DNA from: Tubiluchus corallicola
Taxonomy: Eukaryota; Animalia; Priapulida
DNA length: 64,000 nt
Direction of reading: 5' to 3'
Assembly: GCA_030141605.1 (NCBI GenBank)
Contig: JAQGDQ010000055.1
Span: 496,001-560,000 of the forward strand
Position 1 is the stretch's first letter. Each line of letters opens with the position of its first letter. A program made the translations under genes and the position numbers. Of this stretch, positions 6,156 to 63,300 are shown in pieces. The notes below the pieces were generated by a model. The model searched no databases. It was not told the origin of the DNA and saw only the letters and a program-made list of their open reading frames with translations.

Positions 6156-7065
6156 AGACAAATTGTGAAATTAAAACTTACTGCATGATTTTGTACGATG
6201 AATTTCTTTGTCAGCTTAACTTTAGGACAAAATTTAGAAACAACTTAGCCATCACATAATATTAAGGGTCTGTAAGTAATTAGAGAAGTTTGATAGAACC
6301 CGCTCTGCATTTTTCATGAATTTTTAAAGCGCTCTCTGAAATATCACCTGATATTTATTGGATACACAGAGCGTGTGACGTTATAAGTAATGCTGTTGAG
6401 TGACGCATTTACGTCTTTGCATCGTGGCTGACGCAAGTTAAGACTCAACTCTTAATAGCGTAAATAACCTCTCACACTCATAATAGTGGCTGAGATAATA
6501 TTATAAATTTTCAACTTTTACCGTCAGTATAGCATTCAGCCTATATAGGATATTTACATAATTAGTTGAATAAGTTCTTAATGAGCAACTGAAACAACTA
6601 ACTAGTTAATTAACATTTAACAATTAAATAATTCCAATGTACGTAAATTAGAAAGACTCGACATTTCAGTTAATCGAATCACTACGTATTATATTCATGA
6701 GAAATGATGATGATGATGATTAGTCTTTTATTCTAAAGTATATATTTACATAAATGGGTCTCTAGTTGCAGACAAGTTTAACTTAATTATAAGTGCACAT
6801 ATGCACGTTGATACATTAATGATACAATGTATATGTATCATATGTATGTATAGCTAATACGATGTTACTAAAATTGTCAAAAATTATAACCAGAAAAATA
6901 CATTTGCCGTTATTAAGATTATTGTGCAATATGCCAGATCACTAATTAACTTTTAGCTGATATTTGTCATAGTGATTATAGAAAATATTTGCATCTATGC
7001 GAGCAAATCTATGCCTAGCTTTTATGTGAGCTATATCTTTTATAAATCATCCTGTTTTCCTTTAA

Positions 7066-7684
7066 AGGAAGACAGAATGCTTTTTCATATACTACCCCAT
7101 TTTCAAGTCCGGTAAAAAGTATACATTTTAACACAATTAATACTGCAAACGCGTTTCTGATAATTATGAAATACATCAAAAACTTAACAAACGGCGGGCG
7201 AGCCCAACTATTGATGACATCACAAACTAACATAATTTTCAACAGCAAAAATATTCCACGAGCGTGTTGCACGTGTTTGCGAAAGCGTAAATTGAAGTAC
7301 AGTGCTACTGTAAGATATTCAGTGTGTTGTACTAAAACTAGGCAAGCTTTAAGATAAAAATTCAAATTTCAAATTTATCGCTGTGCTCACGCATGAGCTA
7401 TCGAACGTGTGTAGTTGGTCACAAACTAAAACATCTGAACTGAGAGGTACAGCACCTGTTTTTTGTGCAATACGTTTACGAAATGCAGGCGCTAATGCCC
7501 GTCTAACTAGCGAATGTTAAATTGCAAGTAATAGCGAAAATCTAGTAACGCGAACGCGAAATTGTGTTTGTGCGGTAATAATTCTTTCACGTAAGTCATT
7601 TTTGAAAAAATAGTATGTTTCCTTTCAATATTTTAAAGAGTGGATTGTTTTGACCTACAGTCTAAGATTGGGTCCGGTTTTGCT
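7066..7684 (+). mobile_element. TTAA-flanked non-autonomous DNA transposon (Kolobok-like MITE), family A copy 1
   Basis: TTAA|AGGAAGACAG...CCGGTTTTGCT|TTAA. Colinear and highly similar to copies at 16642, 50429 and 59827. Confidence 0.8.
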
Positions 7685-7853
7685 TTAACAAAATCACTTC
7701 AAACGTTTTTTTTTGGTTTTGTGTGGTTTTGTGTATTCTGTGCATTTTTTAATTTCATTCACAAAACAGTAAGACTTATAACTAACATTATTGGCCTCTG
7801 TATTTACGTAATATACTGAATGTACTGAATGCATGAATGTACTGCTAACATAA

Positions 7854-14410: not shown

Positions 14411-43379
<28,969 letters not shown>

Positions 43380-44489
43380 TAAAAAAATAGTCTCGTAATT
43401 AGAACAATAAGATACTTAATTTGTAAATTTGGTTATTTATAACTGGAAGTGGTTCCTTTTTCACGTATCTGCTACGTAGATTTCAGATCATCACTTACAA
43501 TACACGTCTGTGGTTACTGCTTAGCAATTAAATTTCTGGTGTCTTGAGGTAATTCTGTCCTAACAAGAATAACGTTTCTGGCACTAGGTGTCCACACCTG
43601 TTAAGGAAAATGTCATCCAAGAGTAAGTTGGTCAGATGGCGATATAGCGTTGCACAACAAGAAATGGCATGTATGGCTTCAAGTCTTTTTTACCAAAACA
43701 TGCTTGCCAAATTAACAAAAAGAACCACAACAAAACATTGAACCAGACTACCTACCAGTACTAACTAAACTTTCATTTTTTATACCTGTAATGAACAAGA
43801 AAACAGTGATAACCACGTGGTTGCAAATTACAAGCTTTCGAGCAGTTAGGTACGACATAACTAGTTGTAGCAACGTATTTATCTGGTTCTCTTGACTTTT
43901 CTTTGTCAAACCAAGCAGGTCCTTAATGATTTCTTTTTACTAATTAACATGGATTGATGAAGCAGTACCAGACTACTAAACTCTACTATGCACTTGGCTT
44001 TGTTCGCTGAGTTTCAAAAGTGGTCAAAATGCTTTAGTGACCACTGGTTTCACGAGCGATTATAATGATCTAATTTATATCAGTCAATTAAAATCACTAT
44101 AATCGTTGCGTGAGTTTAACAGCCCTTTGTACCCAACTCATAAACCACGAAGGAGACTTTCCGCTGCTAGAAAATTAAATCCCTAATCTCTGAAATAAGG
44201 AAGTGCTAGCTTTTGTTGGCACTGTCGGTCATTGTTAGCAAGAAGATTTAGTTCATTTCTGCCAGAAGCAATGCAAGGTTATTGTAAATAATGGCTTTAG
44301 TAGACCTAACGTTCAGACTATTTTATTTATTATTTGCTATTTATTATTTATGCGCATTTTAAATTATCAGTTTAAATGCTTTGTTAACAAATGCTGAATT
44401 TATTAAAACTGACTGAAACGGAACCTTTATCGGCTTTAATCTGTTTGTTGTAAACTTCGTAGTTTTATGAAACTTTTCTGGCTGTTAGT

Positions 44490-44645
44490 GTGACGATAGT
44501 GACGCCATCGATGACAACGATGACAATCATTATCATCATCATCATAATCGTCATCATCATTATCGTCGTCATCTTCATCAACATCACCTTCACCATCGTC
44601 ACTATCATTATCGTCGTCATCATTATCATCATCATAATCTTCATG
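44490..44645. repeat. (CAT)n-rich degenerate repeat
   Basis: Direct inspection. Confidence 0.8.
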
Positions 44646-47030
44646 TGGAAAAGGGACGCGAAAAATACAGTACTGTGCAGGCAAATATGAAATGTAAAAA
44701 TCAAAACTAATTTGAAAGCTGTGAATAATAACTACATTTACATTTATGTTAATTTTTGCATATAGTATATATATCATGAGCAAATGCTTGAACAGCAATC
44801 AGACATTTTATGTACAAATATGCAAACAATGCTTTTCGAAAGCAAACAGAAAAGCACCTATTATTTGTTTACACAGTTTATACCAGGAACAAAATAATTG
44901 AAGTTAATGATGTAATTCAACTCGGATACAGAATATTAACAAACAGTTCTATTGCTGCTTCAGCATTTTAAATTGATTTTTACTTGCAAAAGAAGTTTTA
45001 GAATCATATTATAAATTACTAACCCCTTAGTAATTTATAACGGACTTAGCATGATGTCCAAGTGAAGCAGTACGTAACTATAGCAACGCGGAACAGTTGA
45101 TGACGCGATGATATGAGCGTCAAAATGAAACCAAATTCTTGCATCCAAACAACCTTCTCAAGGAAAGTTGGTCCGACGTTTGGTGTCAAAGCCATGCAAA
45201 ATTTGAGATAGAATTATTGCGACCAGCGACCATTGAAGCTAAAATGGTAAGGTCATAGATGTAATATTGATATAAAAGTTTTTAGACACGCAGCACATTT
45301 TGCTGCTATTGTGTTGAAATCATACTTAAATTTGAGATTTCAATACCCTTCATCAATTTAAAATGTTCAACTAATATCAGACGGCACAAAAAATGTGCCA
45401 ACGTTTTGAATACGATGTTATAGGAAGAAAACAACGAAATGGCTCGAAAAAATAAACATTTTAAGCCATTTATCTTGGAATTTTCGAAAATACAGAAGTT
45501 TTAAAACAATAAGTCAAAACATAAATGCGTAGAAAAATGTTGTGTCACTGTTATTGAAATTTATAACAAAAGCCTCCGTGTGTATATAATTTTCAACGCA
45601 AACTAAACAAATTCGTTTCTTTAAGTTACTGACACAGTTTTTCACTTTTTAATGGGGTAGTTTGGGGTTTTTGGTCCCAGGACCCAGGCTCCGAGCGCTC
45701 GACAAATTTTGCCTTTATAATTCCTCTGCGTCAAATGACTCCCTGTGGGAATTCCACGCCTTCTCTAAGGAAATTTCAAGTACCGTAGTTCAGACGATTA
45801 AGTCCCATTTTTACTGATAAATTTTTATCAGTGCATTTTATGGTAAAGACCATGATGTTACCTGATTAATTTGATAGTCTTTATTGTCTTGCTGGCATAT
45901 AAGTGCTTAGCATCTCACATAGCAAAAGCTTTTCGGCCATGACTTAAAAACCATAAAACTACAAACCTTTAACTTTTCCTACCTAAAGGCTAATGTATTG
46001 AGATATCACACCATGAAATTTCAACTTTGTAGAGCACTCGCTTCTAATATTATTGTAATCTAAACTTCGGCACGTTTTTTCTGCGCCACCCTATAAATGC
46101 ATTCCTACATACTTGTAGCATTTGCAACTCGCTCTTTTTTTACTAACTTCACGCAGAGCATACATCTTAACGTGTCAATGACTGGGGGGGGGGGGTCCAA
46201 TGTTCGAGCCTTTTTGACTTGGAACCCTATTTTCCGTTTTGCAAACACAGAGTTCACTGAACTTCTAACAGTATTTGTTATTTGCTACTCCAATGTTTGA
46301 CAGGCGGAATCCAAGTATCAGAGCAATGTGATTTACTTAGAGAACATTTGGATTTTTACTGAAATCCAAAAACATGAAATTATTCCATGAAACTCAGAAA
46401 AGCAAGAACAAGCAGTTTCTTAGTGAAAGATAATGTCTTCCTTTCAATACGTAAATTGTATCTTCCGTAAAAACAGTACTCTTGTGGCTAATCCTGAAGA
46501 CGTCCATCCGGAAGGTAATTTGATTTGTTAGGACTTCTTTGAATCTCTTGGATTCTGGATTTGGCTACTGAGTTTACATGGGGGGGGGAGATTCACGGGA
46601 AGAAACGATGAGACTTACTACAAAATTTGTTAAAGTCGAAACTAAATAGTTATGCTCAAAGTTATTGATTTTTGGATGAAATATGAAACTCTTTGTCTAC
46701 GGAAATCGGAAATTATTTTATTCTAAAACCGGGAATTTAAGAAGGCATTCTTCAGCCACTGACTCAATGATTTTGGACGTTTTAAGTTTTGCAATTTTAG
46801 AACACCATCATTCTACACTCTCTCCGCTGTCCACTCTGTCCAGTTGATCTCTGGTCAACCCTTACACTAAACGTTAATCAAATATTAGCTGTTCGATGAT
46901 TTGACCCTTGCAAATGGTCACGATTATCAAGATACAATTTTGAAGAAGAGCTACAGGTATATCCTTTATCGAGAAACACTCTATCGCTCTTATTTCGTGA
47001 TAATAATTTGTTATTACTATAATGTTAAAA

Positions 47031-50000
47031 ATGAACACGTATCAGGTCAGTTTGAATAGAATTTGCTTTTCGTTTGGTATTAAATAATTATTTGTCTACA
47101 AAATTTTCTTAAAAACAAATGTATTAAATTTGTGCTAAGCATAATGGTTAAAATGCGTTCGTTCTAGATTATTCGGCAGGGCGTTTTCAGTGAAGTGAGT
47201 GTTTTTTTCTTTTGCTATCTGTAATAAATTTTAAAAAAATTGGTTCAACACCGAATTCCTACTCGAATATTGCACAAGTTAATGTAAACATCGGTTTTTC
47301 AGATGAGTGTAAATCATTCATTATCGTTTATTTCAATTGGTTATCATTTATTTCTTTTTCTTTTTTATTTATTAATACGGATAACACAAGATTTGAAGAT
47401 TGTACTGTTTTTTGCATTAATACTTTGTGCTTCAAACGCAGGGTGAATTTGAGTTCATAATAAAATTACTCCTGTCATTTGTGCTGATGTCAAATACGGG
47501 ATGGCTTCCAGAGACATCAGGCTCTCCCTCTTCCTTGACAAAGTCCATGGATTTCATGGAAATCGTTGCACACAACAAAGATTTGATGTCTTACTCCACT
47601 TACGACGTCAATGATGACGACAAGATCACGCTGGATGAGATGATCTATGCATTGCAGGATGACAGCGTTAATGTGATGAAACTGTTCAGAGCTGCTGATT
47701 CAAACGGTATTGTAACGACTTTTGTCTTGCTAGTACAGTAATAGTTCTCAGTTTCAAGGAAGCCAGGTACTCTAGGAGGCGCTGAAGTAGAATGGGTGAA
47801 AACACTACTGTCACAAGAATCACCTACTTGGTTAGATGGCAATCAAAATGTATCTTGCATAATTATTTTGACCATTTCGTTAACCATCTGCTTATTACTT
47901 CCGTTAAGAGATCTCGTTTTTGTCTTCGTTTGTTTGTCTGTCTGTTAGTCTGCTAACAAGACTGCACAAATATTCTATCCACGGAACTTTGTGGAGGAAT
48001 GGGATATGGGACAATGAAGGGTTCCGTAGGATCTCTTAAACTTTAGAAGGATTCTGGGCCATTAAGAGGAGGTAGTTTGACGCCCTAGGTAAACGTGTTG
48101 TTAGCGTCTCCTCCTCAATGATCAACCCCTTCCCCCACGGTCCACACCACATCCCCCAAATTGAACTTTCTTATGTAATATTATAATAAAATAATAATAT
48201 TAGGTATCTGCGTGTGAGGCTTATACAAGAATTATAGTGTGCTAATTAAGACTTAGTGTAGTCAGCTACCTATCTAGAGCTCGTGTTGATTGAATTTGAA
48301 GTTGAATTTATGACGCCATTGTACATCTTGGGTGCTGCGTGGAGTGGCGTAATCTTAGAAAACCAGATAAAGCAAAACCAGAAAGTGTTTTTCTGCGGGA
48401 AGACACATGCTAGCTTCCATGACTCATACATTTTAATAGGAAAACAACGCAAGTAGTTTGCTTTAATTAATTAATGTTACACACGTAAAGAATTATGCAT
48501 ACACTGTGTTATTACGCTAATTTCGGCTAAAATTCGGCTATGTTTTAGGTTAAAACTCGAAATTAAGCAATTACTGGGCAACAGCTTAGCTTGCTTAATG
48601 GTAGAACCGGCCCTGATTGAGAGGAAAAGAGACTACCATCTTTGAGTGGCTTTGGAGAGGTCGCCTGCAGCATAACAACAACAACTTTTTCTATATTTAC
48701 AAAACTGCGACCCCCTGAAAACATTTTAAGTTGCTTCCAACCATAAGTTTCAAATTTAACCTGTCAATATGATTACAATATCATATTGTATAATATCATA
48801 TAATATCATTGATTTTATAAATCTCTAAATTTTCCGAAGTTACAGCAATAAAGATCAAATACACAATGGTGACGGCGGCTAAATAGTTTTAATTTTTGTT
48901 GTCAAAAAAGGACCATATACGCGGCTATAATAAAAATATTTCAGCATTTAATAATTTACTAAAACATTTTTAATGGTTTCAACCGAGAGCTTTGAAAACT
49001 GAATCACATTTTTCTCTATTTAATTAGGTGATGATGCGTTAAGTTGTCAGGAATTTTTGGACGCTCCGTTTTGGCCAAATCGAGATGAAGTTAATTGTCG
49101 AGCCAATCGAGGTACGCTAATTACAAAATTGCGCATTTAGTATCGCAATACAAGAGTCTCGGGGCAGTACTTCCCTTCCATGTTCATTGGCTGCGGGACT
49201 TCGCCTTGATGATGTCAAATTAAAATGGCGTACTTATTGAATACATGACATGGTTGAATACTGTAGGCCATCCTGCGCTAAATTTAGCGCACTACGCATG
49301 CGCTAAATGGATTCGAAATTACGTTTGAGTTTAATACTTTATCTTATTCACGTAAATGTGCAATTGTATTTTTGAAGTGAATAAAAAATCTAATCTAATT
49401 TAAATTTTCGGGGAACCAGTGCGGTACATGGTCAGTCCAACTACCTCATTGGTGGTTTTTGTTCATTCTTTTAACTTTACATTGGAAATTTTGACAAATT
49501 TTTAAAAATTCTGTGAGTTTCTTCGTTTTGAAAAAAATTGTGCTTCTTCTTGACGTCAGTTTGGCGTCTTAAAAACCTGCTCGACCAGGTGTTGAACTCA
49601 CGCCAGCATGCAGTACGTAGCTATTGTTTTTCGCTTATCTTTTCTTGACAATGCCACATTGATAACTTAGTTGCATCTATTTTGTACAAAGCAATAACCA
49701 AACATATAATTACAAATAATCAGTTCAGTGGGTGTTTGATTTGCTGTGATTAAGTAGTACATGTGTTTTAGTAGCATAAAAATGAAATCAGACCATAAAT
49801 TATTTCGATAGGTCAGGTAGTGCTGTCGCAGTTTATGGTGTGATAATCACAGAGCTAAACGCAAATGTTGAGGGAGGGAATGTTGAGGAGCCTCACTAAG
49901 CGTTTGAAGGGCTCACAAGCCTCACTTATCATGACGCTATTGAAACAGCCAATTGTATCTCGCAGGGAAGTATTACCCCGAGACTCTTATATCGTAATTT

Positions 50001-53000
50001 ATGTTAGTGTCGTATCGTTGTATGCGATAATCAAACGCAATTACGCGATTAGTATTAAAGAATCAGCGCTAGAATCACAATTTTGAACAAAATTTTGAAA
50101 CATATTTATTCAGACCTAACTTTTGTTGAACAAGTTTTACTTTTGAGGCGAAAAACGTTTTCAAATTACCATATGATAAACAGGGGCATCGTGACGTGGG
50201 GCAATTGCAAAACTTAACATATATTCACTTATAGTTAGAAACTGCAGAAATTATTCTGTTTGGCTTGGTGAGATCGAAAATGCACTTTATGATATAGATA
50301 TCAATCGTTCTCAGACATTTTGATTCAAGAAATTAACGTATGACGTCACAGTTGCGTCATCGTTTGAAAAATGTGGTCGCTATTAATGAATAGAGAGAAA
50401 GACTGAAGTATCTTTACCACAGCCTTAAAGGAAGACAGGATCATTTTTCATATACTACCCAATTTTCCAAGTCCAATAAAAAGTATGCATTTTTACACAA
50501 TTAATACTGCAAAAGCGTTCCTGCTATTTAAATATAAGATTAAAATCTTAAATAGCGGCGGGCAGCTTTGTGTATTTTTCTTCTGTTAATAAGCTACAAG
50601 CAGTTCTTTTTTTCTTTTTGTTTACTTTATACGCCAGAAAGGTAATTTTCTGATGCAAGACCATATGCTAGAAAGTGTATTTCTTAACTAAATAACTGTT
50701 TTTTTATTTTTATTTTCTGTGGTTTTTCTGAGTCGGTGTTTAATTCAGTGGTTAATTATTAATTACACTACAAAATTAACAAAACTTGCTCTTATTTTTA
50801 GTTCGTCGGGCAGGATCAGTCGGCGCATTTTTGCCTGGTCATGATTGGACGTATGAAGGCGGTACGTTTGCATAATTGTACATAATTCGTTCTCGCATAT
50901 TTCTTTTTCTTTATTTTTCTTCATGCACATCGTCCGACATTTTATTTGGTGCTGTGCAACCTACTGTTCATGGTGCCGCAACAATTCTTCCAGCTTTGCC
51001 TGATGTCAAACACGTTTAATTTTACCACTCGAAACGTAAAAGCAAGCCGAACTGAGTTTCGCATTTTCGAAACAAACAAATACTGAATTCAGTTTAATTT
51101 GTAGCAGTTTTCTAAATGTAAGTACTTCTACTTTTATATCAAAAACAAGAACAAGTAATTAAAATATTTGCATAGTTGAATATTACATTTTTGCAATGAT
51201 GATATTGACAATGACGATGAAACAAGAGTAATTAGTACATATTTAGTAATAAAAGTTTACTGGTCTATTATAAGAGACCTACGTTTTAGTAAAGAGAAAA
51301 GAAATTACAATATGACTAACTTACGACACGATTACATTAATTGTATACGTTAAGTTTAATACAAAAGACTTTAAGACTTTAGACATACCTATTATACTGT
51401 GCTATTATTGTTACAATTAATCGCCAATGAAATGTTATTACCAGATGAGATTCAGTAACTGTTATGCGCGAACAATCCAGCTGTGTCTAATCGCTCTACT
51501 TTATGGTATTTAAGAAGGTTAGCTGAGTTAGCACAATCTGTCTGCTTTTAAAAATTTGACGTTTTTTGGATTTTTTAATATTAATTCATAATTCTGAAAA
51601 TCAGATATTTGCAAACGAGCTCTCATTTTTGTATACAAGCCTTTCTCTAAAATTCGATAGTGAATAACAGGAATGCTGAACTAGTTATGCCGCTGTTATA
51701 GTTTCTTGTGTTATTTCTATTTTACTTCCAGACAATGGGCAAGATTACTGGGTTAACAGTTACCCGGACTGTGGCAAGAATGCGCAATCACCAGTTAATA
51801 TAAATGATATGGATGCGATATATGACTCAAATTTGGATGATATAACGTTCACTGGATATGATTCTTTAAACGACATGATTAAGATGGAAAACACTGGACA
51901 CACTGGTAAGTCATTGGTAATGGAATAAAAAATGCATTGTTTTTTGGGTGACTCGCTCGCGAATTGACCATATAAAGAGGTCTATTTCGCTGTGATGCCG
52001 ACCTTGTTGTCGTTCATGTAGTAAGGTTTTATCTAGTTTTATATTGTGACATCACAACAAGGTTACTCCGTGACAATAACATAACAATCCATAACATAAC
52101 ATAACTTTCCATAACTATAATAATTGGGGTTCTAAATGACATATCCAGGCAAGATGGCAAAAATTCTATAAGAGAGAATTCCGGCTTAGTTCATCGTGCA
52201 AGTATTTTAGAACTGCTACAATCGCATTTACGTTGGTTTATGTCAAGGAATTCGAAACTTATATATGAAAACGATACTAGCAGATTTCTCTTGACATGCG
52301 TTCTATTTTACTGATCTTAGATCATTATTCTTAATAATTGTCTAAGATACCGGTACTGCCAATTCATCTAGTAAGAGATAGTAAAAATGATATATGGAAT
52401 AAAAAATGCGTTGTTTTTTGGGTGACTGGCTCGCGAACTAACCCTATAAAGAGATGTCCTTCGCCATGATGCCGGTCTTCTTGTTGTACATGCAATAAGT
52501 TTTTAGCCAGTTTTATATTGTGACATCATAAGAGAGTCTGGCTACAGTATTGAAGACAGTGAAAGAAGACAAAAAGAAAAGAGAAAGAAAAAAGCGTGAC
52601 AAAGGAAAACACACACAACAAGAAATGGACGAAAATAAACGAATGAAGAACAACGTAAAGAAAGACGCTGAAAACGATTTTTAATAAACATTTTGCAAGC
52701 TTACTTTCGTCACATTTTTTTAAATTAAGCTGTAAGTGCATGACCCAGCAGTCTCCACGTCGTCGTCGTCGTCTTCGTTACCAAAGTTAAGATTGGCCTC
52801 ACGCTGGGCTGTGACTGGACGGGTGAGCAGCTTCGATTTTTGGTTTGAGAGATTTTATTTCATGCTGTTTGTGGCTGTTTAACCCCGGAGAGGGAGAAAG
52901 TTTGTTTATTCCACATTTGTACGTAGCTGAGACTCCTTTGCTGGTCCAGTGGCTCATCTGAGAGATGTAGCCTTGATAATACTTTCGGTTTGCACAAGCC

Positions 53001-56000
53001 TGAATTGTATAAAGCAAATATTACTCAGACTAATTATTAAATCCACGTTTGATTACAGTCAAGCTAACGATTGGAGGGAATGATACAGCAACAATAAGCG
53101 GTGGAGGGTTGATGGGAATATACAGACTTCACAGTATCCACTGGCATTGGGGCAGTATGGACACAATGGGATCTGAACACATGTTTCAGGGCATGCATAA
53201 GCCCATCGAGGTTTGTTTTGTTCTCACTTTACTGTACTATTTTTGAAAAACGTGTCTGTGAACTTTCAGAAAAAGTGTAAACTGTGTTGAGAATGATGAC
53301 AACAGCAGCAGCAACAACATCAACAACATCATCATCATCATCATCAACAAGAACAACAACAACTACAGTAGTATCAGCAACAGTACAGTAACAAAGTAGT
53401 GCTATGGCTAATAAGACTATCTGCGAATTTTTGATATAACATAGTTTCTAAAAGACCATCAAAATTAATTAAAATAATGCCTAACTTAAAAACACTATTT
53501 CCCTAAAAGACGCACAACGCCAAAGGTAACTGTTAAACAACAACAGCTACAGCAACAACGGCGTCGACGACGACCATAACAGCAACAACAACAGCAATAG
53601 TATTAGCAACAGCTCAACAACAAAGTAGTGCCATAGTAATAACAATATATGCGAACTTAGGAATATTTTGATATAACATAGTTTCTAAAGCACCATCAGA
53701 ATTTATTAAACGTATGCCTAATGAGAACATTATTTGCGTAAATGATGCATAGATAATTTACACAATACATACCTTAGCTAAGTAATTTCCAAAGCGGTGG
53801 AACTCTTGCTAGTTAAAAAATGAAAAACTATAAAAGTATTATAAATGATGATGATATCATGCATTCGTCTTGTAAGCGTAAGATCCTTGGTTCAAATTTA
53901 GGCCGTGCAGCTATCATTATCTTTTGTTTTTAGATGCATATGGTTCACTATAACACCAAGTACATGGATCTCACAGGCGCAGTAGACAAAAGCGATGGAC
54001 TGGCAGTTTTGGGTATTTGGTTTGAGGTACAAACTGAATCATAAGTCATAATACAATTAGTTCCACGTCCAATACATTAACTGATGCATTTAATTTCGCA
54101 GGATAATTCGATGTTACTATTCCTTCAAATCAGTTTCATTTGGTAGTATTTACTGTTCTTCATCTAAATTGTCTCACACTTCAAAGGAAAATATCTTGGT
54201 CACATTATATCTCAAACCGTACTGATAATGAGAATTTGAAAGGGCAAAAATGTTTATTAGCTGCTACAGTTAATATCTTGATCAGAAATTTTCCTAAACG
54301 TAAAGAAGAAATAAGAGTTTGATTGTTTAAAACATTTTGTACTAGTGTATGTGGAGCATCGCTCTGGCGAGATTATTTTACACATTCATATCGACAATTG
54401 AAGGTTGCATACAATAATTGTATTACAAAACTATCTAAGTTACCATTTGATTGTAGTGCTCGGCAATTGTGTATAGGTGGAAATATTCCTTATTTTGACC
54501 TTATATTACGGAAATATTGTTATTTACTTATGAGACGACTGATTTACTATTTAAGCAATTCAGATATTCAGGTTATTTCAAAATTACCTAACTTTTCGCG
54601 ATTAACATCACACAGGTGATTCGCTGCATTTCAACTAACATTTCTAATATGTAAACATTTATTCTATTAATTTTATCTTATAGCTTTTAATTTTTTGTTA
54701 TAAATATGTTTTACGAACCTCGTGTTCGAAATAAAGTAATTTGCTTACTTACTTTATTTAGTGTGGAACTAGAACTATAATAGTTGCTACTTTCGTTCAA
54801 GCTCATTCTAATCATTTTTCAATACCTTAAAGTCATTCTTTGTTTTAATGATAGAAATTTACATTTTGTAACAGGTGGGTGACATGAACAGCGGTTTGGA
54901 CCATGTTACTAGCATGCTGAAAAACATTATGTACTTGGGCGAAGAAACTATGATAGGAGCCTTTGACATCACGAATCTACTTCCAATGGACATGATGTAT
55001 AAGAAAATGAAAGGGAGCAACTTAATGGGGTATTACCGGTACGCAGGCTCACTGACCACTCCCCCGTGTCATGAGTCAGTGACCTGGACCGTTTTTCAAG
55101 ACTACGCTACTCTGAGTGATGCACAGGTAGGCCTACATCTGAAAACATGAACGCAGAATTTTTTGTCTATGAGTCTTATTGATAAGTAGTTATTGTCGTT
55201 ACGTTAAAAAAAGCTTTTACAAGAAATGTATATCGTAACGTTTTGCATATGACTCTTTTGCTAATGACACTGATTTGGATATTTAGTCGTCAGTCTTAGA
55301 AAACTGTAAAAAATTCGTACAAATGAAAATTTGGTACAGTATCTCGAATTTTTTTAAAATACACAATTTGGTAAATATCCCTCAATAACCTACGAGTTTT
55401 TTATCATTTTTATCAGAAAGTAACACGGTTTCTATTGCACACTAGCCGTCATCATTGATTTTCCGATGATGGCTGCTATTCTGGGGTAGAAACGTTGACA
55501 GTTTTTTAATTATGAATTTAATTTAGTTTTTATTTCAATTCCGTACACATGGTACTATTATTACATATATTTACAACACACATAAAAATTATTGATAAAA
55601 GAGATTAAGATTACTAACTAAAAACCTAAAATACATATTTAAAAATACTTGCTTAAAAATTTAGAGCTTAAAATCATCACATAACATGTTTTGCCAGTTT
55701 TTAAAAAATAGAGACTCAAATAACATATCAGAATTTATACTGGCACAAACTAGAATGTCTTTTTTACTTGAAAAAGTGTGGAAGATTATTATGTGCACAT
55801 ATATAATAAAAGTGATAAAAAATCCGTTGGTTATTGCGAGATATTTGCCAAATTAAAAATTTTGTATTTTATTGCAGATGCAAGCTTTCAGGGCATTGTA
55901 CATGTACAACAAATCCAGCGGCGTGGAAGATAAAATCGTGGATAATTTCCGTAAAGTTCAACCATTAAACACGCGTATGATCAAAACCAGCATTGATCTG

Positions 56001-56168
56001 GGCGGGGGAACTACTACGACTGATATGACAACGACAAAGATGACTGATAAGACGACTACAATGATGACTACAACGAAAAAAAGCACAACAACAGAGTCTC
56101 TTGGTCACCAGATGAAATGGTGCATGCTTCTGTCATTGTTGGGTGTTGTGCTTTCAGTATTTTTATAG
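47031..56168 (+). CDS. Secreted or membrane-anchored alpha-carbonic anhydrase with an N-terminal EF-hand pair, about 470 aa, 10 exons
   Basis: Exons: 47031-47045 and 47168-47194 (both tentative), 47442-47706, 49028-49111, 50802-50861, 51732-51905, 53059-53210, 53934-54026, 54875-55126, 55878-56168, all GT-AG with matching phases. CA motifs: HDWTYEG, PDCG..AQSPVNI, NTGHTV (His64), HWHWG (His94/96), GSEH, EMHMVH (Glu117/His119), DGLAVLG, YYRYAGSLTTPPCHESVTW, DNFRKVQPLN. EF loops DVNDDDKITLDE and DSNGDDALSCQE. Thr-rich stalk and hydrophobic C-terminus WCMLLSLLGVVLSVFL. The CA part is high confidence; the fusion and start codon are less certain. Confidence 0.8.
50429..50565 (+). mobile_element. 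Kolobok-like MITE family A, 5' fragment
   Basis: TTAA|AGGAAGACAGGATCATTTTTCATATACTACCC... matches the first ~135 bp of 7066-7684. Confidence 0.7.
51920..52528 (+). repeat. Direct repeat of about 135 bp (51920-52054 and 52395-52528) in a CA intron
   Basis: ATGGAATAAAAAATGC.TTGTTTTTTGGGTGACT.GCTCGCGAA...AGTTTTATATTGTGACATCA occurs twice. Confidence 0.8.
53340..53750 (+). repeat. Diverged tandem duplication with (CAA)n heads
   Basis: CAAAGTAGTGC.AT...TTTTGATATAACATAGTTTCTAAA..ACCATCA...ATGCCTAA occurs twice. Confidence 0.65.
54150..54752 (+). mobile_element. Degenerate RTEX-clade LINE 3' fragment in a CA intron
   Basis: Frameshifted and stopped translation KYLGHII...NILIRNF...LFKTFCTSVCGASLW...LKVAYNNCITKLSKLPFDCSARQL...NIPYFDLILRK, which is the RTEX C-terminal pattern. 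Ends with AATAAA and a (TACT)n-like tail. Confidence 0.7.
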
Positions 56169-57526: not shown

Positions 57527-58432
57527 ATGAGTGGAGAAAGTTTAGTCGTTATCCGCTCTGTCTTACTCATTCTGTCCGTGGCATTTGTGAGGTGCGAAAT
57601 ATTCAGTTCAAAGACGAAATTCATCGATTTAAGCTACGACTTCGCTGAAGACGAGACAGTTTACTGGCCAACCACCAACCCATTCAACACCACTGTGTTC
57701 TTCAAAGGTTACACTAACGATGGTGTGTATTACGAGGCGAATGATTTCTGCACTGCAGAACACGGAGGGACTCACATAGACTCGCCCGTACATTTTGTCA
57801 AAGGTAACAAAGCTGTACATGAAGTTAAGCTTCATCAGCTCATCGGTGAAGCTGTTGTCGTTGATGTGAGAGAGAAGACGAAGAACAATGCTGATTATCA
57901 AGTGACTATTGATGACCTGAAAGCCTGGGAGACCCTACACGGGAAAATTCCCAACGACAGCATATTGCTGATAAACACTGGTTGGGCCAAGTTTTACCCA
58001 GACAGGAAAACCTATCTGGGAACTGATACGATGGATACGTCTCTGTTACATTTTCCAGGAATGCATCCAGACACTGCGAGATGGCTGGTAAAGAATCGAA
58101 AAATAAAAGTGCTTGGTCTGGACACGGCTTCGCTGGACTATGGTCAGTCAAGGTTGTACGAAGCACACCGAATTCTTTTCGAGAAAAATATTCCTGGTTT
58201 TGAAAATTTGGCAAATCTGAATCAACTTCCGGCGCGTGGTTCTACCGTTATAGCTTTGCCAATGAAAATTCGAGGAGGTACAGGAGCTCCACTGCGAATC
58301 ATAGCTGTGCTGGATGACACAGCTGGAGCAGGAAATGTTCATGGCTGGTCATCCGTGAACACTAGCCAGATAAAGACACTGATCCAACTTGCTTTAGTTT
58401 TCATTTGCTTTGGCAATTTTAGGTTACTATGA
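57527..58432 (+). CDS. Cyclase-family metal-dependent hydrolase (kynurenine formamidase KynB / isatin hydrolase-like), intronless CDS, signal peptide and hydrophobic C-terminal tail
   Basis: 301-aa ORF with AEHGGTHIDSPVHF (HxGTHxD metal motif), LHFPG, GLDTASLDYGQS, ENLANL and ALPMKIRGGTGAPLRIIA. N-terminal VLLILSVAFVRC and C-terminal LIQLALVFICFGNFRLL. Possible 5'-UTR splice acceptor TTTCCTGTTTTAG near 57463. Confidence 0.9.
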   Translation: MSGESLVVIRSVLLILSVAFVRCEIFSSKTKFIDLSYDFAEDETVYWPTTNPFNTTVFFKGYTNDGVYYEANDFCTAEHGGTHIDSPVHFVKGNKAVHEVKLHQLIGEAVVVDVREKTKNNADYQVTIDDLKAWETLHGKIPNDSILLINTGWAKFYPDRKTYLGTDTMDTSLLHFPGMHPDTARWLVKNRKIKVLGLDTASLDYGQSRLYEAHRILFEKNIPGFENLANLNQLPARGSTVIALPMKIRGGTGAPLRIIAVLDDTAGAGNVHGWSSVNTSQIKTLIQLALVFICFGNFRLL

Positions 58433-60348
58433 GTGTAGAAACTTTGAAAAATGTTTGCAGATCATCTGCATGTGTGACAAGCAGTTTTTTTTTTGTTGTT
58501 GTTAAATGTCTTCAATATTACCTTTCTGCAATTTTAACTTCCTTGTGACTTTTGTTGAAAAAGTTGTGTAATAAAGGCACATTCATAGTGGTACAGAAAC
58601 TCGCCAAGTAACTCGCAATAGGTCTCTTTCGTTAATTCTGAACTGAGTTGCGCATAGCCACTAATTATATCGAGTTTTGAGGCAAATTAACAAAAGGAGC
58701 GGGGGCATATGTAGGTGCTCAGTGTTATTTGTGTTAATTATTTTTAAGTACTCTGTATTTTCAATTTTTTTAGTGAATCAGTTTTAATGTTTTCTGATTA
58801 CTTTATCTTTGTATATATTTTTTCATATTGTCATAATTAAGTGATGCTCACGTTTTGAATTATTTCTATTATTCATTTTTTGTGACTATCCTGTTTTTGT
58901 CCTTGCTTGTGTAATTTTAGCTTGTATTTTGTAGAGTGCCCAATTTTCATTTTTTTATTTTTTTATTTTATTTCCAATTTGAATGATACTGCATGTCTAT
59001 TTTTAGTAAAATTTTTTAGCATCGTTTATTTTTAGACTGTATGAATAGCCAATTTGGCTAATGGTTTTTCTGTTGCACACCCGACTTTAAAAAAAGATTA
59101 TGTATGTTTCTCTGTCATAGTACAAACCTCGATTATTTTTATTAGTTAGATTTTTTGAGCTGTCCATTGCGTCTTTCTCATTAGAGCGATTGCACCTCTA
59201 TTAGCGTAACTGCTAGATTAAATTAGACAAAGGCTATGTTAGATGTGAGAATGTAGATTTTTGGCGCTTCTGAACTGCTCTTTACACGCTGGTGAATGTG
59301 CTCCCTAGGTTTTTGGTTGTCATAGTTTTAAAGAAGAGAACAAGTTATTCAACATGTTGCGTTTATTTTACTGTCATCACTTAAACATAGAAAAATAAAA
59401 CAAAGAAATTTGCAAAAGACTGTTGCCGCCATTCATATGAAAATTATGACCTTGCTGGTGACTTCGTGACTTTTCGTCAGCGCATCGTGGCTTTCCGTAA
59501 ACGCACACTGTTTAAACTAATTCAGACTTCTGCAGGTTACCTAAGATTCACACAAAATATTACAAAATTAGCTATCTATTTTTTGGAAAAACCTATTATG
59601 CTTTTGACGAAGAATGACAGTAGTATTTTTTTCAGGACGAATGATATCATTGGAAGAAGAATGGACATTGAAAATGGAAGCGTCCAAGCAGGAAATGATC
59701 GCGACTTTAAAATGATTTTACTAATTACACGAGGCGTTTACTGCAGTTTTATTACTAAATCCTTCTAACATTTTTGCGAACATTGAAATAAGCCTAACCA
59801 CCTAGAAGAACTGACCTTTCCTTTAAAGGAAGACAGTATGATTTTTCATATACTACATTTTCAAGTCCGTTAAAAGTATACATTTTAACACAATTAACAC
59901 TAGAAAGTCGTTTCTGATAATTAAATAAAAGATTAAAATCATAATTAACGGTGAGCGAGCCCAACTATAGAATGACATCACAAACTAAGATCATTTTCAA
60001 CAGCAAAAACATTCCGCAAGTGTGTTGCAAAAGCGCAAATTAAAGGACAGTGCTATGGTAAGATGTTCAGTGTGTTGTGCTAAAACTAGGCAAGTTTTAA
60101 GATAAAAATCCAAATTTCAAACTTACCGCTGTGTTCACGCATAAGCTGTCGAACGTGTGTAGTTTGTCACAAACTAACACATCTGAAGTGAGAAGTACAG
60201 CACCTGTTTTTTGTACAACGCTTTCTGAAATGCTGGCGCTAGTACCCCTCTAATTAGCGAATGGCGGAATGCATATAACAGCGAAGAACTAGTGGCGAGA
60301 ACGTGAAATTGTGTTTGTGTGGTAACAATTTTTTCAAGTAAGTCATTC

Positions 60349-63300
60349 ATACACTCATACGTCGAGACCGTCCCACACATAAACGTGGAGGAGGGGTTGC
60401 AATGTACATCCCAAAACACATGTCATTTAACGAAGCCAAAGGAATTAAAACTAACAAAATAGAATCAATTTGGTACAATATCGAAAACTACATAGTAGGT
60501 GTCATTTATAAGCCACCAAATCAAAAATATAAGACTTTTCTAAAACATTTTGAAATTGAACTTGAACGTGCTGTACTTGAAAATCAACCAGTTTTATTAA
60601 TGGGGGATTTTAATATCGATATTAATGCAACAAATACTGCTCAGTGCAAAAAGTATAAAGAAGTCTTGGACCAATATAACACGCAAATACTAAACGCAAG
60701 TAATAAACCCACAAGAATCACTAAAACATCATCTACTACCATAGACCACTTTATCTCAAACGCTAAAGACAATTTCCAAGTACAAGAAAACTTCTCGTGT
60801 GATTATTCTGATCATGATTTTATAATATTAGTAGACAAAAAAGAACCAACCAAAAACAATACAGGCACAGTCTGGAAAACAGTCAGAGATTATTCTACAT
60901 ATAATAAAGATATATTTCAAGATACTTTAACCAAATTGGACTGGAGTAATATTTACACAATGACTGACATTGACATGCAAATAAACACATTAATAAATAA
61001 TATGGAATACTGCCTGGATATCTATGCACCGTATAAAAAAATTAAAATACATCAGCAGCAATTTAATGCAAAATCTGCCTGCCCTTGGGTGGATACAGAA
61101 CTCGCAAAACTAAGACACAATAAAAATGAATTATATAGAACATATTTACATTTAAAAGGTAAAATCAATTACAATAATTACAAAAAGGCACGAAATAAAT
61201 TTAATAGCTACAACAGGAAACTCAAAAATAAATATTATATTAATAAATGCAATGATGCAACTACACCTAAACAAAAATGGCGTTTAATTAATGACGTACT
61301 TAACAGATACAGAAACGATCAATTACAAATAAATAGTTTACGAGAAAATGACAGTATAATATCTGATCCAGTTGACATTGCTAACAAATTAAATTCCACA
61401 TTTATCAATCTCGGAAAATTTGACAACTTGCCACACCAACATAATGCAAATATACACAATATATACAAAAACCAATCAGTAATACAATCCACTTTCCCAT
61501 TTACTAGCGTCACAGAATACGACATCTTTAGAATATTAAACAGTTTAAATATAAATAAAGGAAGTGGACCCTCAGACATGCCAATAAAGATCTTAAAAGA
61601 CTGTGCCAGCATCATTACTCCTCATTTAACATATATCACAAACCAAGTCTTAATGCGCTCAGAATTTCCAGCAGTGTGTAAGCAAGCAAACATAACTCCA
61701 ATACACAAGAAAGATGCTAAAGATGATGCTAAAAACTACAGACCAATCTCAGTAGTGCACGTACTAGCCAAAGTATTTGAAAGAGTTATCTACAACCAAA
61801 TAAACCATTACATTGAAAATAATAAGTTACTGTCAAATCATCAATTTGGTTTTAGAAAACTACATTCTACAATAGACGCGATAATTGATGCCACTGAAAA
61901 GTGGCGTTACAACTTAAATAAAAATAAATATATAACAGCAGCATTTTTAGATCTAAGTAAAGCTTTTGACAGCCTCGATCACAATTTACTACTAGACAAC
62001 TTACGCCAACTAGGATTCGATTATACTTCTCACAAACTAATTAATAATTACCTACACAATAGAAAACAAAGAGTCAAACTGAACAAACACACTTTTTCAA
62101 CATGGGACACACCACAGAGAGGCATCCCACAAGGTACGATATTAGGTCCATTACTCTTTTGTTTATACGTTAATAAAATTCATTTAGTTTTACATAATTC
62201 AGACTTAACACAATATGCCGATGATACAACACTCTATACAGCACACGCAGACTTTCTAACATCAAAAAATAATCTAGAAAAAGACATAACAAATATAAAT
62301 GCAGCATTTAACTATTTTGGTTTAAAAATGAATGATGATAAGACAGAATTTATAGTAATATCACCCAAATCCAATGACATTACTTCTAATGCAACACTAA
62401 AAGTAGGTGACTGTTCCATAGAACAAGCAAAAACTGTAAAATTTTTAGGCATTACTGTCGACAATAAACTCACTTGGGATGAACAGTTTCATCAAATACA
62501 CAACAAGATGGCATTAAGCACGACATTCTTACGCCAAACCAGAGGCCATCTAACGAAGAAAACAAAAATTCTCATCTACAAAAGTCTAATATTACCACAT
62601 TATCTATATGGTTGCACTTTACTTCAAAACGTTAAATATGAAAACTTTAGAAAACTAAATACGATGCAAAACTACGCACTTAGATTAATTCATGGCTACT
62701 CTAACAAAACTGCTAAACAACATGCTGCTTCTGCAACAAGCTTAAGAACGTCCACAAAAATACCAATATTAGAAGCCTATCGAGATTACAAAACACTGAT
62801 ATTTCTTTATAAATATATAAATAAACTGAGCATTCCATTTATAAACAATCCCTTAGCATTTATTCCTGATACCACATTGAACACTAGAACATACAATTTA
62901 AAGCAAATTACAGTAAACAATAAATTTGGAAATAACTCTATATCAAAACAGGCCATACATTTATGGAACTTACTACCCAGTGAAATAAAACAAATAGAAT
63001 CTCTCCACCACTTTAAAAAGAAATTAAAAGAATATCAATATAACAGGTTTCAACTTCATCATTGTGCAAATTACAATTGTACTAATTACACGGACTCCAC
63101 TTTCATATACCCCCGCCCCTGACTCCATATAATGATTAAAAATGAAATTTTTTAAAAAAAATTATGTAATGTAATACGTGTTATGTTAGTTTCGTGTCTC
63201 GTAATGTTAAATGTATAAATAGTGTGCACTATGTAATGTAAAATTTAATGTACTTTCCTATAATTGTTTGTGAAAATATTTTAATATGGTATTTGTAAAT

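Follow-up and report, generated by a model that had tools for sequence, protein, structure and literature searches.

A candidate gene for an EF-hand/alpha-carbonic anhydrase precursor in the priapulid Tubiluchus corallicola

We analysed a stretch of 64,000 nucleotides (nt) from Tubiluchus corallicola (Priapulida; GenBank assembly GCA_030141605.1, contig JAQGDQ010000055.1, positions 496,001 to 560,000 of the forward strand), called the window below and numbered from its first letter. An earlier sequence-only reading had placed in it a gene that joins a pair of EF-hands to an alpha-carbonic anhydrase (CA). The window is animal DNA of ~36% guanine plus cytosine (GC) with introns rich in microsatellites, and the nine exons in question span 47031-56168 and join into a single open frame of 461 residues (Table 1). 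Each of the eight introns is of the GT-AG type and phases agree at every junction, so the exon coordinates and phases of the sequence-only reading hold.

Nine exons and two modules

Fifteen of the 16 splice sites fall within the top 9% of the 798 GT and 717 AG sites of 44-58 kb when ranked with rough site frequencies, and the weakest ranked site is the donor of exon 2 (86.5th percentile). The exons have 38-55% GC and the introns 28-37%. Stops lie in frame upstream of exon 1, where translation probably starts.

Table 1. Exons of the proposed gene, candidate features near its 5' end, and flanking genes (window positions)
Feature	Position	Strand	Content	Evidence or remark
Exon 1, coding part	47022..47045	+	ATG at 47031, in-frame ATG at 47022	Phase-0 donor, 99.4th percentile
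Exon 2	47442..47706	+	Atypical signal segment; EF-hand 1; start of EF loop 2 (first four residues, with the helix leading into it)	
Exon 3	49028..49111	+	Rest of EF loop 2, Cys100, Cys117, R-A-N-R	Phase 1-1; sites 99th percentile
Exon 4	50802..50861	+	V-R-R-A (completes furin-type site), then W-x-Y start of CA domain	
Exon 5	51732..51905	+	CA domain; Cys23 and His64 equivalents	PF00194, E=8e-14
Exon 6	53059..53210	+	CA domain; His94, His96, Glu106; Ser for Gln92	PF00194, E=4e-11
Exon 7	53934..54026	+	CA domain; His119, Val121	Alignment to CA II chains
Exon 8	54875..55126	+	CA domain; Thr199, Cys203, Trp209, 10-residue insertion	PF00194, E=1.5e-19
Exon 9	55878..56168	+	CA domain end, Thr-rich stalk, predicted glycosylphosphatidylinositol (GPI)-type signal, stop	PF00194, E=6e-5
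Candidate cassette micro-exon (or 5' untranslated exon)	47180..47194	+	15 nt, phase 0-0; 5 codons, no stop	Acceptor 98.5th, donor 98.4th percentile
Alternative signal-like stretch	47393..47442	+	Other frame than exon 2; hydropathy 3.3, basic n-region	Donor 97th percentile
Flanking gene, 5' side	14264-43379	+	Coiled-coil, long	Last large exon runs to stop at 43379
Flanking gene, 3' side	57527-58432	+	Cyclase-family, single-exon	PF04199, E=5e-41

EF loop 1 (47604-47639) is the sole match to the PROSITE-type EF-loop pattern among the 127,996 six-frame residues of the window. When the donor of exon 2 was joined to each of 436 downstream AG sites, a single one of them (49028) completed EF loop 2, which bears out the claim that exon 3 supplies the rest of this loop; when residues 31-125 were shuffled, two loops appeared in 0 of 20,000 trials and a single loop in 0.34% of them. 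Both loops are 12 residues long and carry ligands at positions 1, 3, 5, 9 and 12, with Asp in place of the usual Gly at position 6. The best solved-structure match of exon 2 is weak (calsenilin, E=0.007), in the Atlas it lies near EF-hand clusters (0.90-0.91, with 88-124 features in common, the level of distant relatives), and a single-sequence model of 62 of its residues gives a helix, a loop at EF loop 1 and a second helix, at low confidence (predicted local distance score, pLDDT, 64; predicted template-modelling score, pTM, 0.23). We take the EF-hand pair to be real; it is predicted to be a likely calcium binder, and a disulfide between Cys100 and Cys117 within this acidic piece (~10.6 kDa, isoelectric point 4.35) is likewise a likely prediction.

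The CA domain is complete, as had been proposed: four exon frames match PF00194 in order (profile positions 1-58, 57-113, 145-217 and 216-253), and five exons tile two full-length CA relatives, also in order. Alignments to CA II chains place the zinc ligands His94, His96 and His119 at model residues 227, 229 and 252; the gatekeepers Glu106 and Thr199 and the proton shuttle His64 are kept, Trp209 is also present, and Gln92 of CA II is Ser in exon 6. Judged by these residues, the enzyme is catalytically intact. By motif position, Cys155 and Cys346 are the equivalents of the Cys23-Cys203 pair of extracellular CAs. Vertebrate extracellular alpha-CAs comprise the GPI-anchored CA IV, the secreted CA VI and the transmembrane forms CA IX, CA XII and CA XIV; among solved structures exon 8 is closest to CA XII (E=8e-12), VI, XIV and IX, and CA IV scores lower. 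The domain is followed by a stalk (~56010-56096) that is 49% Thr and contains a 24-nt tandem repeat, then by a candidate omega site at Ser439 (~56097) and ~15 hydrophobic residues that run to the stop and leave no cytoplasmic tail. The sequence-only reading had called this a membrane anchor; the hydrophobic C-terminus stands, but judged by eye it looks like a GPI-type signal, and the transmembrane helix plus cytoplasmic tail of the CA IX/XII/XIV layout is absent.

How are the two modules joined? The exon-3 donor (49111) and acceptor 50802 share phase 1, and joining them creates the motif R-V-R-R, the furin-type site that had been claimed for this junction. A second in-frame acceptor (50814, a CAG) lies 12 nt downstream; its use would delete V-R-R-A and leave R-A-N-R. 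Exon 3 can also be skipped with the frame kept (phase 1-1), and the product would then lack the second EF loop as well as the first Arg of the furin motif. Since a CA that has both the cysteine pair of extracellular forms and a GPI-type tail requires a signal peptide, the lack of an alternative signal-bearing first exon supports the fusion: among 17 ATG-led candidates in 43400-50750 (single exons with a phase-1 donor at or above the 80th percentile) none has a signal-like core, the best 11-residue mean being 1.31, in line with the sequence-only reading, which found no other signal-peptide exon for the CA between 49111 and 50802. Two further arrangements were rejected: the EF exons cannot be the tail of the upstream gene, which stops at 43379, and a CA start at an internal Met would cost the N-terminal motif, one cysteine and any signal.

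Met makes up 7.8% of the whole protein, compared with a median of 2.5% and a maximum of 4.0% among 88 CA relatives, and the tree program flagged the 461-residue chain for its composition. The value is 5.2% in the EF module and 8.2% in the CA, against 1.6% in four coding stretches taken from the two neighbouring host genes (Fisher p of 0.018 and 9e-8, respectively; a post hoc comparison). High Met in both modules is a weak shared signature, since calmodulin and other EF-hand proteins are rich in Met in any case. Surface methionines could, speculatively, serve as an oxidant sink.

The proposed precursor and its alternatives

We think it probable that a single gene comprises the nine exons and that its precursor is split into an EF-hand propeptide and a GPI-anchored alpha-CA of the ordinary sort. 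Splicing, secretion, cleavage, GPI addition, calcium binding and CA activity are the steps that we infer, as follows: the precursor would enter the endoplasmic reticulum (ER) and the secretory pathway and receive a GPI anchor, and a furin-type protease would cut after R-V-R-R in the trans-Golgi. The mature product would be a 31-kDa CA, held at the cell surface by a glycosylated stalk and setting pH and bicarbonate there; it would start about a dozen residues before W-x-Y, like ordinary extracellular CAs after signal removal. The freed ~10.6-kDa EF piece might be a calcium-dependent propeptide acting in the ER and Golgi, or a calcium-binding peptide or buffer released 1:1 with the enzyme, and it would not stay linked to it because no spare cysteine is left if Cys100 pairs with Cys117. 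As to origin, a small secreted EF-hand gene likely contributed its 5' exons, which a phase-1 intron connected to a CA gene in place of the latter's signal exon. The sequence-only reading had one precursor couple calcium binding with bicarbonate supply at the surface; a single precursor is the most economical gene model, but the furin-type site would split the EF piece off before the surface is reached.

Several observations weigh against this interpretation. The gene model is read from the DNA; run X1 has contigs across introns, no splice joints, and no cover of ~47341-47532 and exon 3, and run X2 (RNA by guess only) gave six short pieces at 85%, none on 46900-49300, gaps that are no evidence either way. 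A Pfam scan of the exon-2 frame alone reached 18.8 bits with EF-hand_6 (E=0.0012; cut-off 25) and 16 bits with EF-hand_7 (cut-off 30). An R-V-R-R-like motif also arose from 7 of 356 AG and 17 of 370 GT sites tried, a chance rate of 2-5%. The furin-type site depends on acceptor 50802 and is lost with 50814, and the rough splice matrix ranks 50814 higher (98.9 versus 96.4 percentile). The modelled signal segment has an acidic n-region and also a core Lys; of the signal peptides of 75 relatives, 0 show both. Finally, an EF-loop match was found in 0 of 270 CA relatives (154,943 residues), and the front piece had no match in them at E<0.07; this sample is the top of a very large family, so that an EF-hand-CA protein whose CA is more distant would escape it. 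Its 270 distinct proteins come from the best 150 of 1,579 exon-8 representatives (E<=0.001), 13 cluster members and the best 120 of 3,496 hits of an alignment query built from two database CAs and seven window exons, which leaned towards its two templates. There is thus no conservation evidence for the fusion, because no relative shares its layout, and the same count is in line with the claim that the domain combination is unfamiliar.

The choice between the two acceptors bears directly on cleavage. A calcium-regulated enzyme, which is possible, needs an uncut form, arising through acceptor 50814 or through poor cleavage at the site. Such an EF-hand-CA chain could have its activity, folding or surface retention made calcium-dependent by the tethered EF pair, and acceptor 50814, in frame and highly ranked, would remove V-R-R-A. 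As the main product it is nevertheless improbable: the first AG behind a pyrimidine tract is the usual acceptor choice, the 12 nt separating the acceptors resemble an exon in being GC-rich, the R-A-N-R that 50814 leaves is still a minimal R-X-X-R site, and outside the cell calcium at seawater level would likely saturate canonical EF loops, making sensing less useful. That the 12-nt choice acts as a switch between a cleavable precursor and a tethered, calcium-regulated surface enzyme is an idea we consider unlikely; if it were true, one gene would couple calcium handling to bicarbonate supply. Alternatively, the locus may hold two genes in head-to-tail order: exons 1-3 would encode a small secreted EF-hand protein, and the CA would have its own undetected first exon. 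Stand-alone secreted two-EF-hand proteins of ~122 residues exist (Orpins, as outlined in the available text of 10.1101/2020.05.22.110411), and reading through the donor of exon 3 meets a stop after nine more codons (~49140), with an AATAAA at 49380. We give this arrangement little credence: AATAAA is common here (1.36 per kb), the read-through codons are intron-like (GC 0.33), the exon-3 donor stands at the 99th percentile with a phase that fits exon 4, and none of the 17 candidate first exons bears a signal. An EF-only splice form made alongside the fused form is possible.

The N-terminus is the weakest part of the gene model, and the 15-nt micro-exon candidate adds doubt about it; the EF-CA junction is independent of the signal-exon question. 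Of the signal-like segment proposed earlier the hydrophobic core is normal (hydropathy 2.66, compared with a median of 2.61 in 83 relatives), but its surroundings are the atypical ones described above. The stretch at 47393-47442, one of two non-microsatellite stretches among 13 equally hydrophobic ones in 43.4-57.5 kb, may be a chance reading of a pyrimidine tract, a relic, or a true exon with two local lesions or errors. Were it the true signal exon, the fusion would be real in origin and the 5' end of this copy damaged, either through an assembly error at this spot or because the copy is a null allele or a young pseudogene. The stretch reads as a textbook signal peptide with a strong donor immediately behind it, 47443-47511 or 47443-47520 could serve as a short intron, and the modelled signal is, as said, atypical. 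Yet the reading (47393-47440) begins with TTG, not ATG, and its end is in phase 2 although phase 1 is needed, phase-2 acceptors within exon 2 occur only downstream of EF loop 1, and two independent lesions would be needed in 50 nt while the remaining 1.3 kb of coding sequence is free of stops and shifts. Acceptors 47512 and 47521 rank low (71st and 76th percentile, compared with 97.9 for 47442), and pyrimidine tracts by themselves translate into hydrophobic residues. Damage of this kind is therefore quite unlikely, and the cleaved precursor with its modelled signal remains our preferred interpretation.

Does the gene serve calcification? A calcification module, compatible with all of these models, would supply a site of CaCO3 deposition (spicule, stylet, cuticle or concretion) with bicarbonate and a calcium-binding peptide at once, and a spicule or skeleton role had been suggested for the gene. 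We found it unsupported, and rate it as doubtful: nothing in the analysis indicates a mineral or mineralised tissue, cleavage would part the EF piece from the enzyme, the 461-residue frame has no Gly-X-Asn or long acidic repeat, and the gene stands between a coiled-coil gene and one for a cyclase-family hydrolase. Priapulids are not known to be mineralised. In its favour, as far as the available text of these papers goes, CA and EF-hand domains both recur, as separate proteins, in shell matrix proteomes (PMC13425148, PMC13190495), calcareous sponges have a sclerocyte-specific membrane-bound CA (PMC4265532), and ciliate armour requires a CA fusion (PMC13344042).

If the EF piece of the preferred precursor is simply removed, the mature enzyme is ordinary and the interest of the gene is mainly evolutionary, as a clean case of a new front piece acquired through a phase-1 intron. 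Animal toolkits for calcium carbonate and pH repeatedly contain CA and EF-hand proteins, normally as separate parts, and a natural fusion of the two would offer a simple test of calcium binding controlling or chaperoning an alpha-CA.

Surroundings of the gene

The large, multi-exon coiled-coil gene on the 5' side resembles, we presume, SOGA/MTCL-type proteins. The cyclase-family gene on the 3' side is isatin hydrolase- or kynurenine formamidase-like, has its nearest clusters in arthropods and molluscs, and has hydrophobic N- and C-termini, so it too is possibly secreted and GPI-anchored. Beyond it, 60342-63122 (+) holds an intact frame of 926 codons that reads like the endonuclease-reverse transcriptase of a retrotransposon of the long interspersed nuclear element (LINE) type. 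One dispersed repeat has copies at 7056-7688, 16638-17235, 50425-50563 and 59817-60348, of which that at 50425-50563 lies in intron 3 and has very high depth in run X1; intron 5 contains a 138-nt duplication (51920-52057 and 52394-52531, 84% identical). Inverted-repeat pairs or a palindrome at 25744-26101, 29118-30092 and 32697-33430 are likely non-autonomous DNA transposons, and 24924-25312 is an exact tandem duplication. An Rfam scan of 43-60 kb gave no match.

Relatives and known systems

The nearest CA domains are 38-45% identical to the catalytic domain, and a quick tree of 61 sequences (none of them CA IV) gave this CA no supported sister branch. Extracellular alpha-CAs of animals, which include the vertebrate forms named above and invertebrate "CA2-like" membrane CAs (such as records from Pinctada imbricata, Potamilus streckersoni and Stegodyphus mimosarum), share its zinc ligands, gatekeepers, His64 and cysteine pair, and a hydrophobic C-terminal stretch is also present in 63 of 84 relatives. 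The front of the protein differs: the leader before W-x-Y is 136 residues long here; in the 79 of 88 relatives with a detectable motif its median length is 25 and it does not exceed 91, and R-X-X-R occurs in the last 25 leader residues of none of those 79. On the layout the searches gave the following: the best 120 of the 3,496 alignment hits have PF00194 only, in a Pfam scan that could miss so divergent an EF pair; 106 of the 150 exon-8 representatives, many of whose top rows are multi-CA records, were scanned with Pfam and contain no EF-hand family; and among longer proteins 0 of 56 candidates answered to exon 2 at E<=0.01 and 0 of 121 to exon 8 at E<=1e-10, both weak tests. A metagenome scan found exon 2 in 0 of 82 stretches and exon 8 in 20 of 82, all distant CAs, with an EF loop or front-piece match at none of the 20 loci. 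As predicted here, the EF-hand-CA layout is unusual, and we found no other example.

The abalone protein Hdh-SMP5 is, going by a reference title only, reportedly a small secreted two-EF-hand protein. In titles and abstract openings we found no EF-hand-CA protein, although a supplementary domain table could list one. The available text of the related papers treats CA and EF-hand proteins as separate or describes other CA fusions (PMC6639325, PMC13425148, PMC13344042, PMC4265532, PMC13190495, 10.1101/2020.05.22.110411).

The closest counterpart of the front piece is found in Orpins, which the available text of 10.1101/2020.05.22.110411 describes as stand-alone secreted two-EF-hand proteins of ~122 residues reported only in Ambulacraria. 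Like exons 1-3 in size, they have a signal peptide and an EF-hand pair in ~120 residues, but their chain ends after the EF pair whereas here the frame continues into the CA, and their conserved Trp after the first loop, compared by description, is Met here (10.1101/2020.05.22.110411).

Among CAs, nacrein of the pearl oyster shell likewise has a CA domain and a proposed calcium-interacting module in one chain, according to the available part of PMC13190495. Its module is a low-complexity Gly-X-Asn repeat inside the CA domain, whereas the EF pair here lies outside that domain with a candidate cleavage site between the two, the only insertion being the 10 residues in exon 8, and the enzyme here is predicted to be membrane-anchored, unlike nacrein. 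Two other lineage-restricted alpha-CA fusions have different partners: Carb::Aldo of Colepidae ciliates (PMC13344042) and L-CA of calcareous sponges (CA-vWA-Ig; PMC4265532), which has lost zinc ligands; the available text of these two papers mentions no EF-hand and no cleavage site in either protein.

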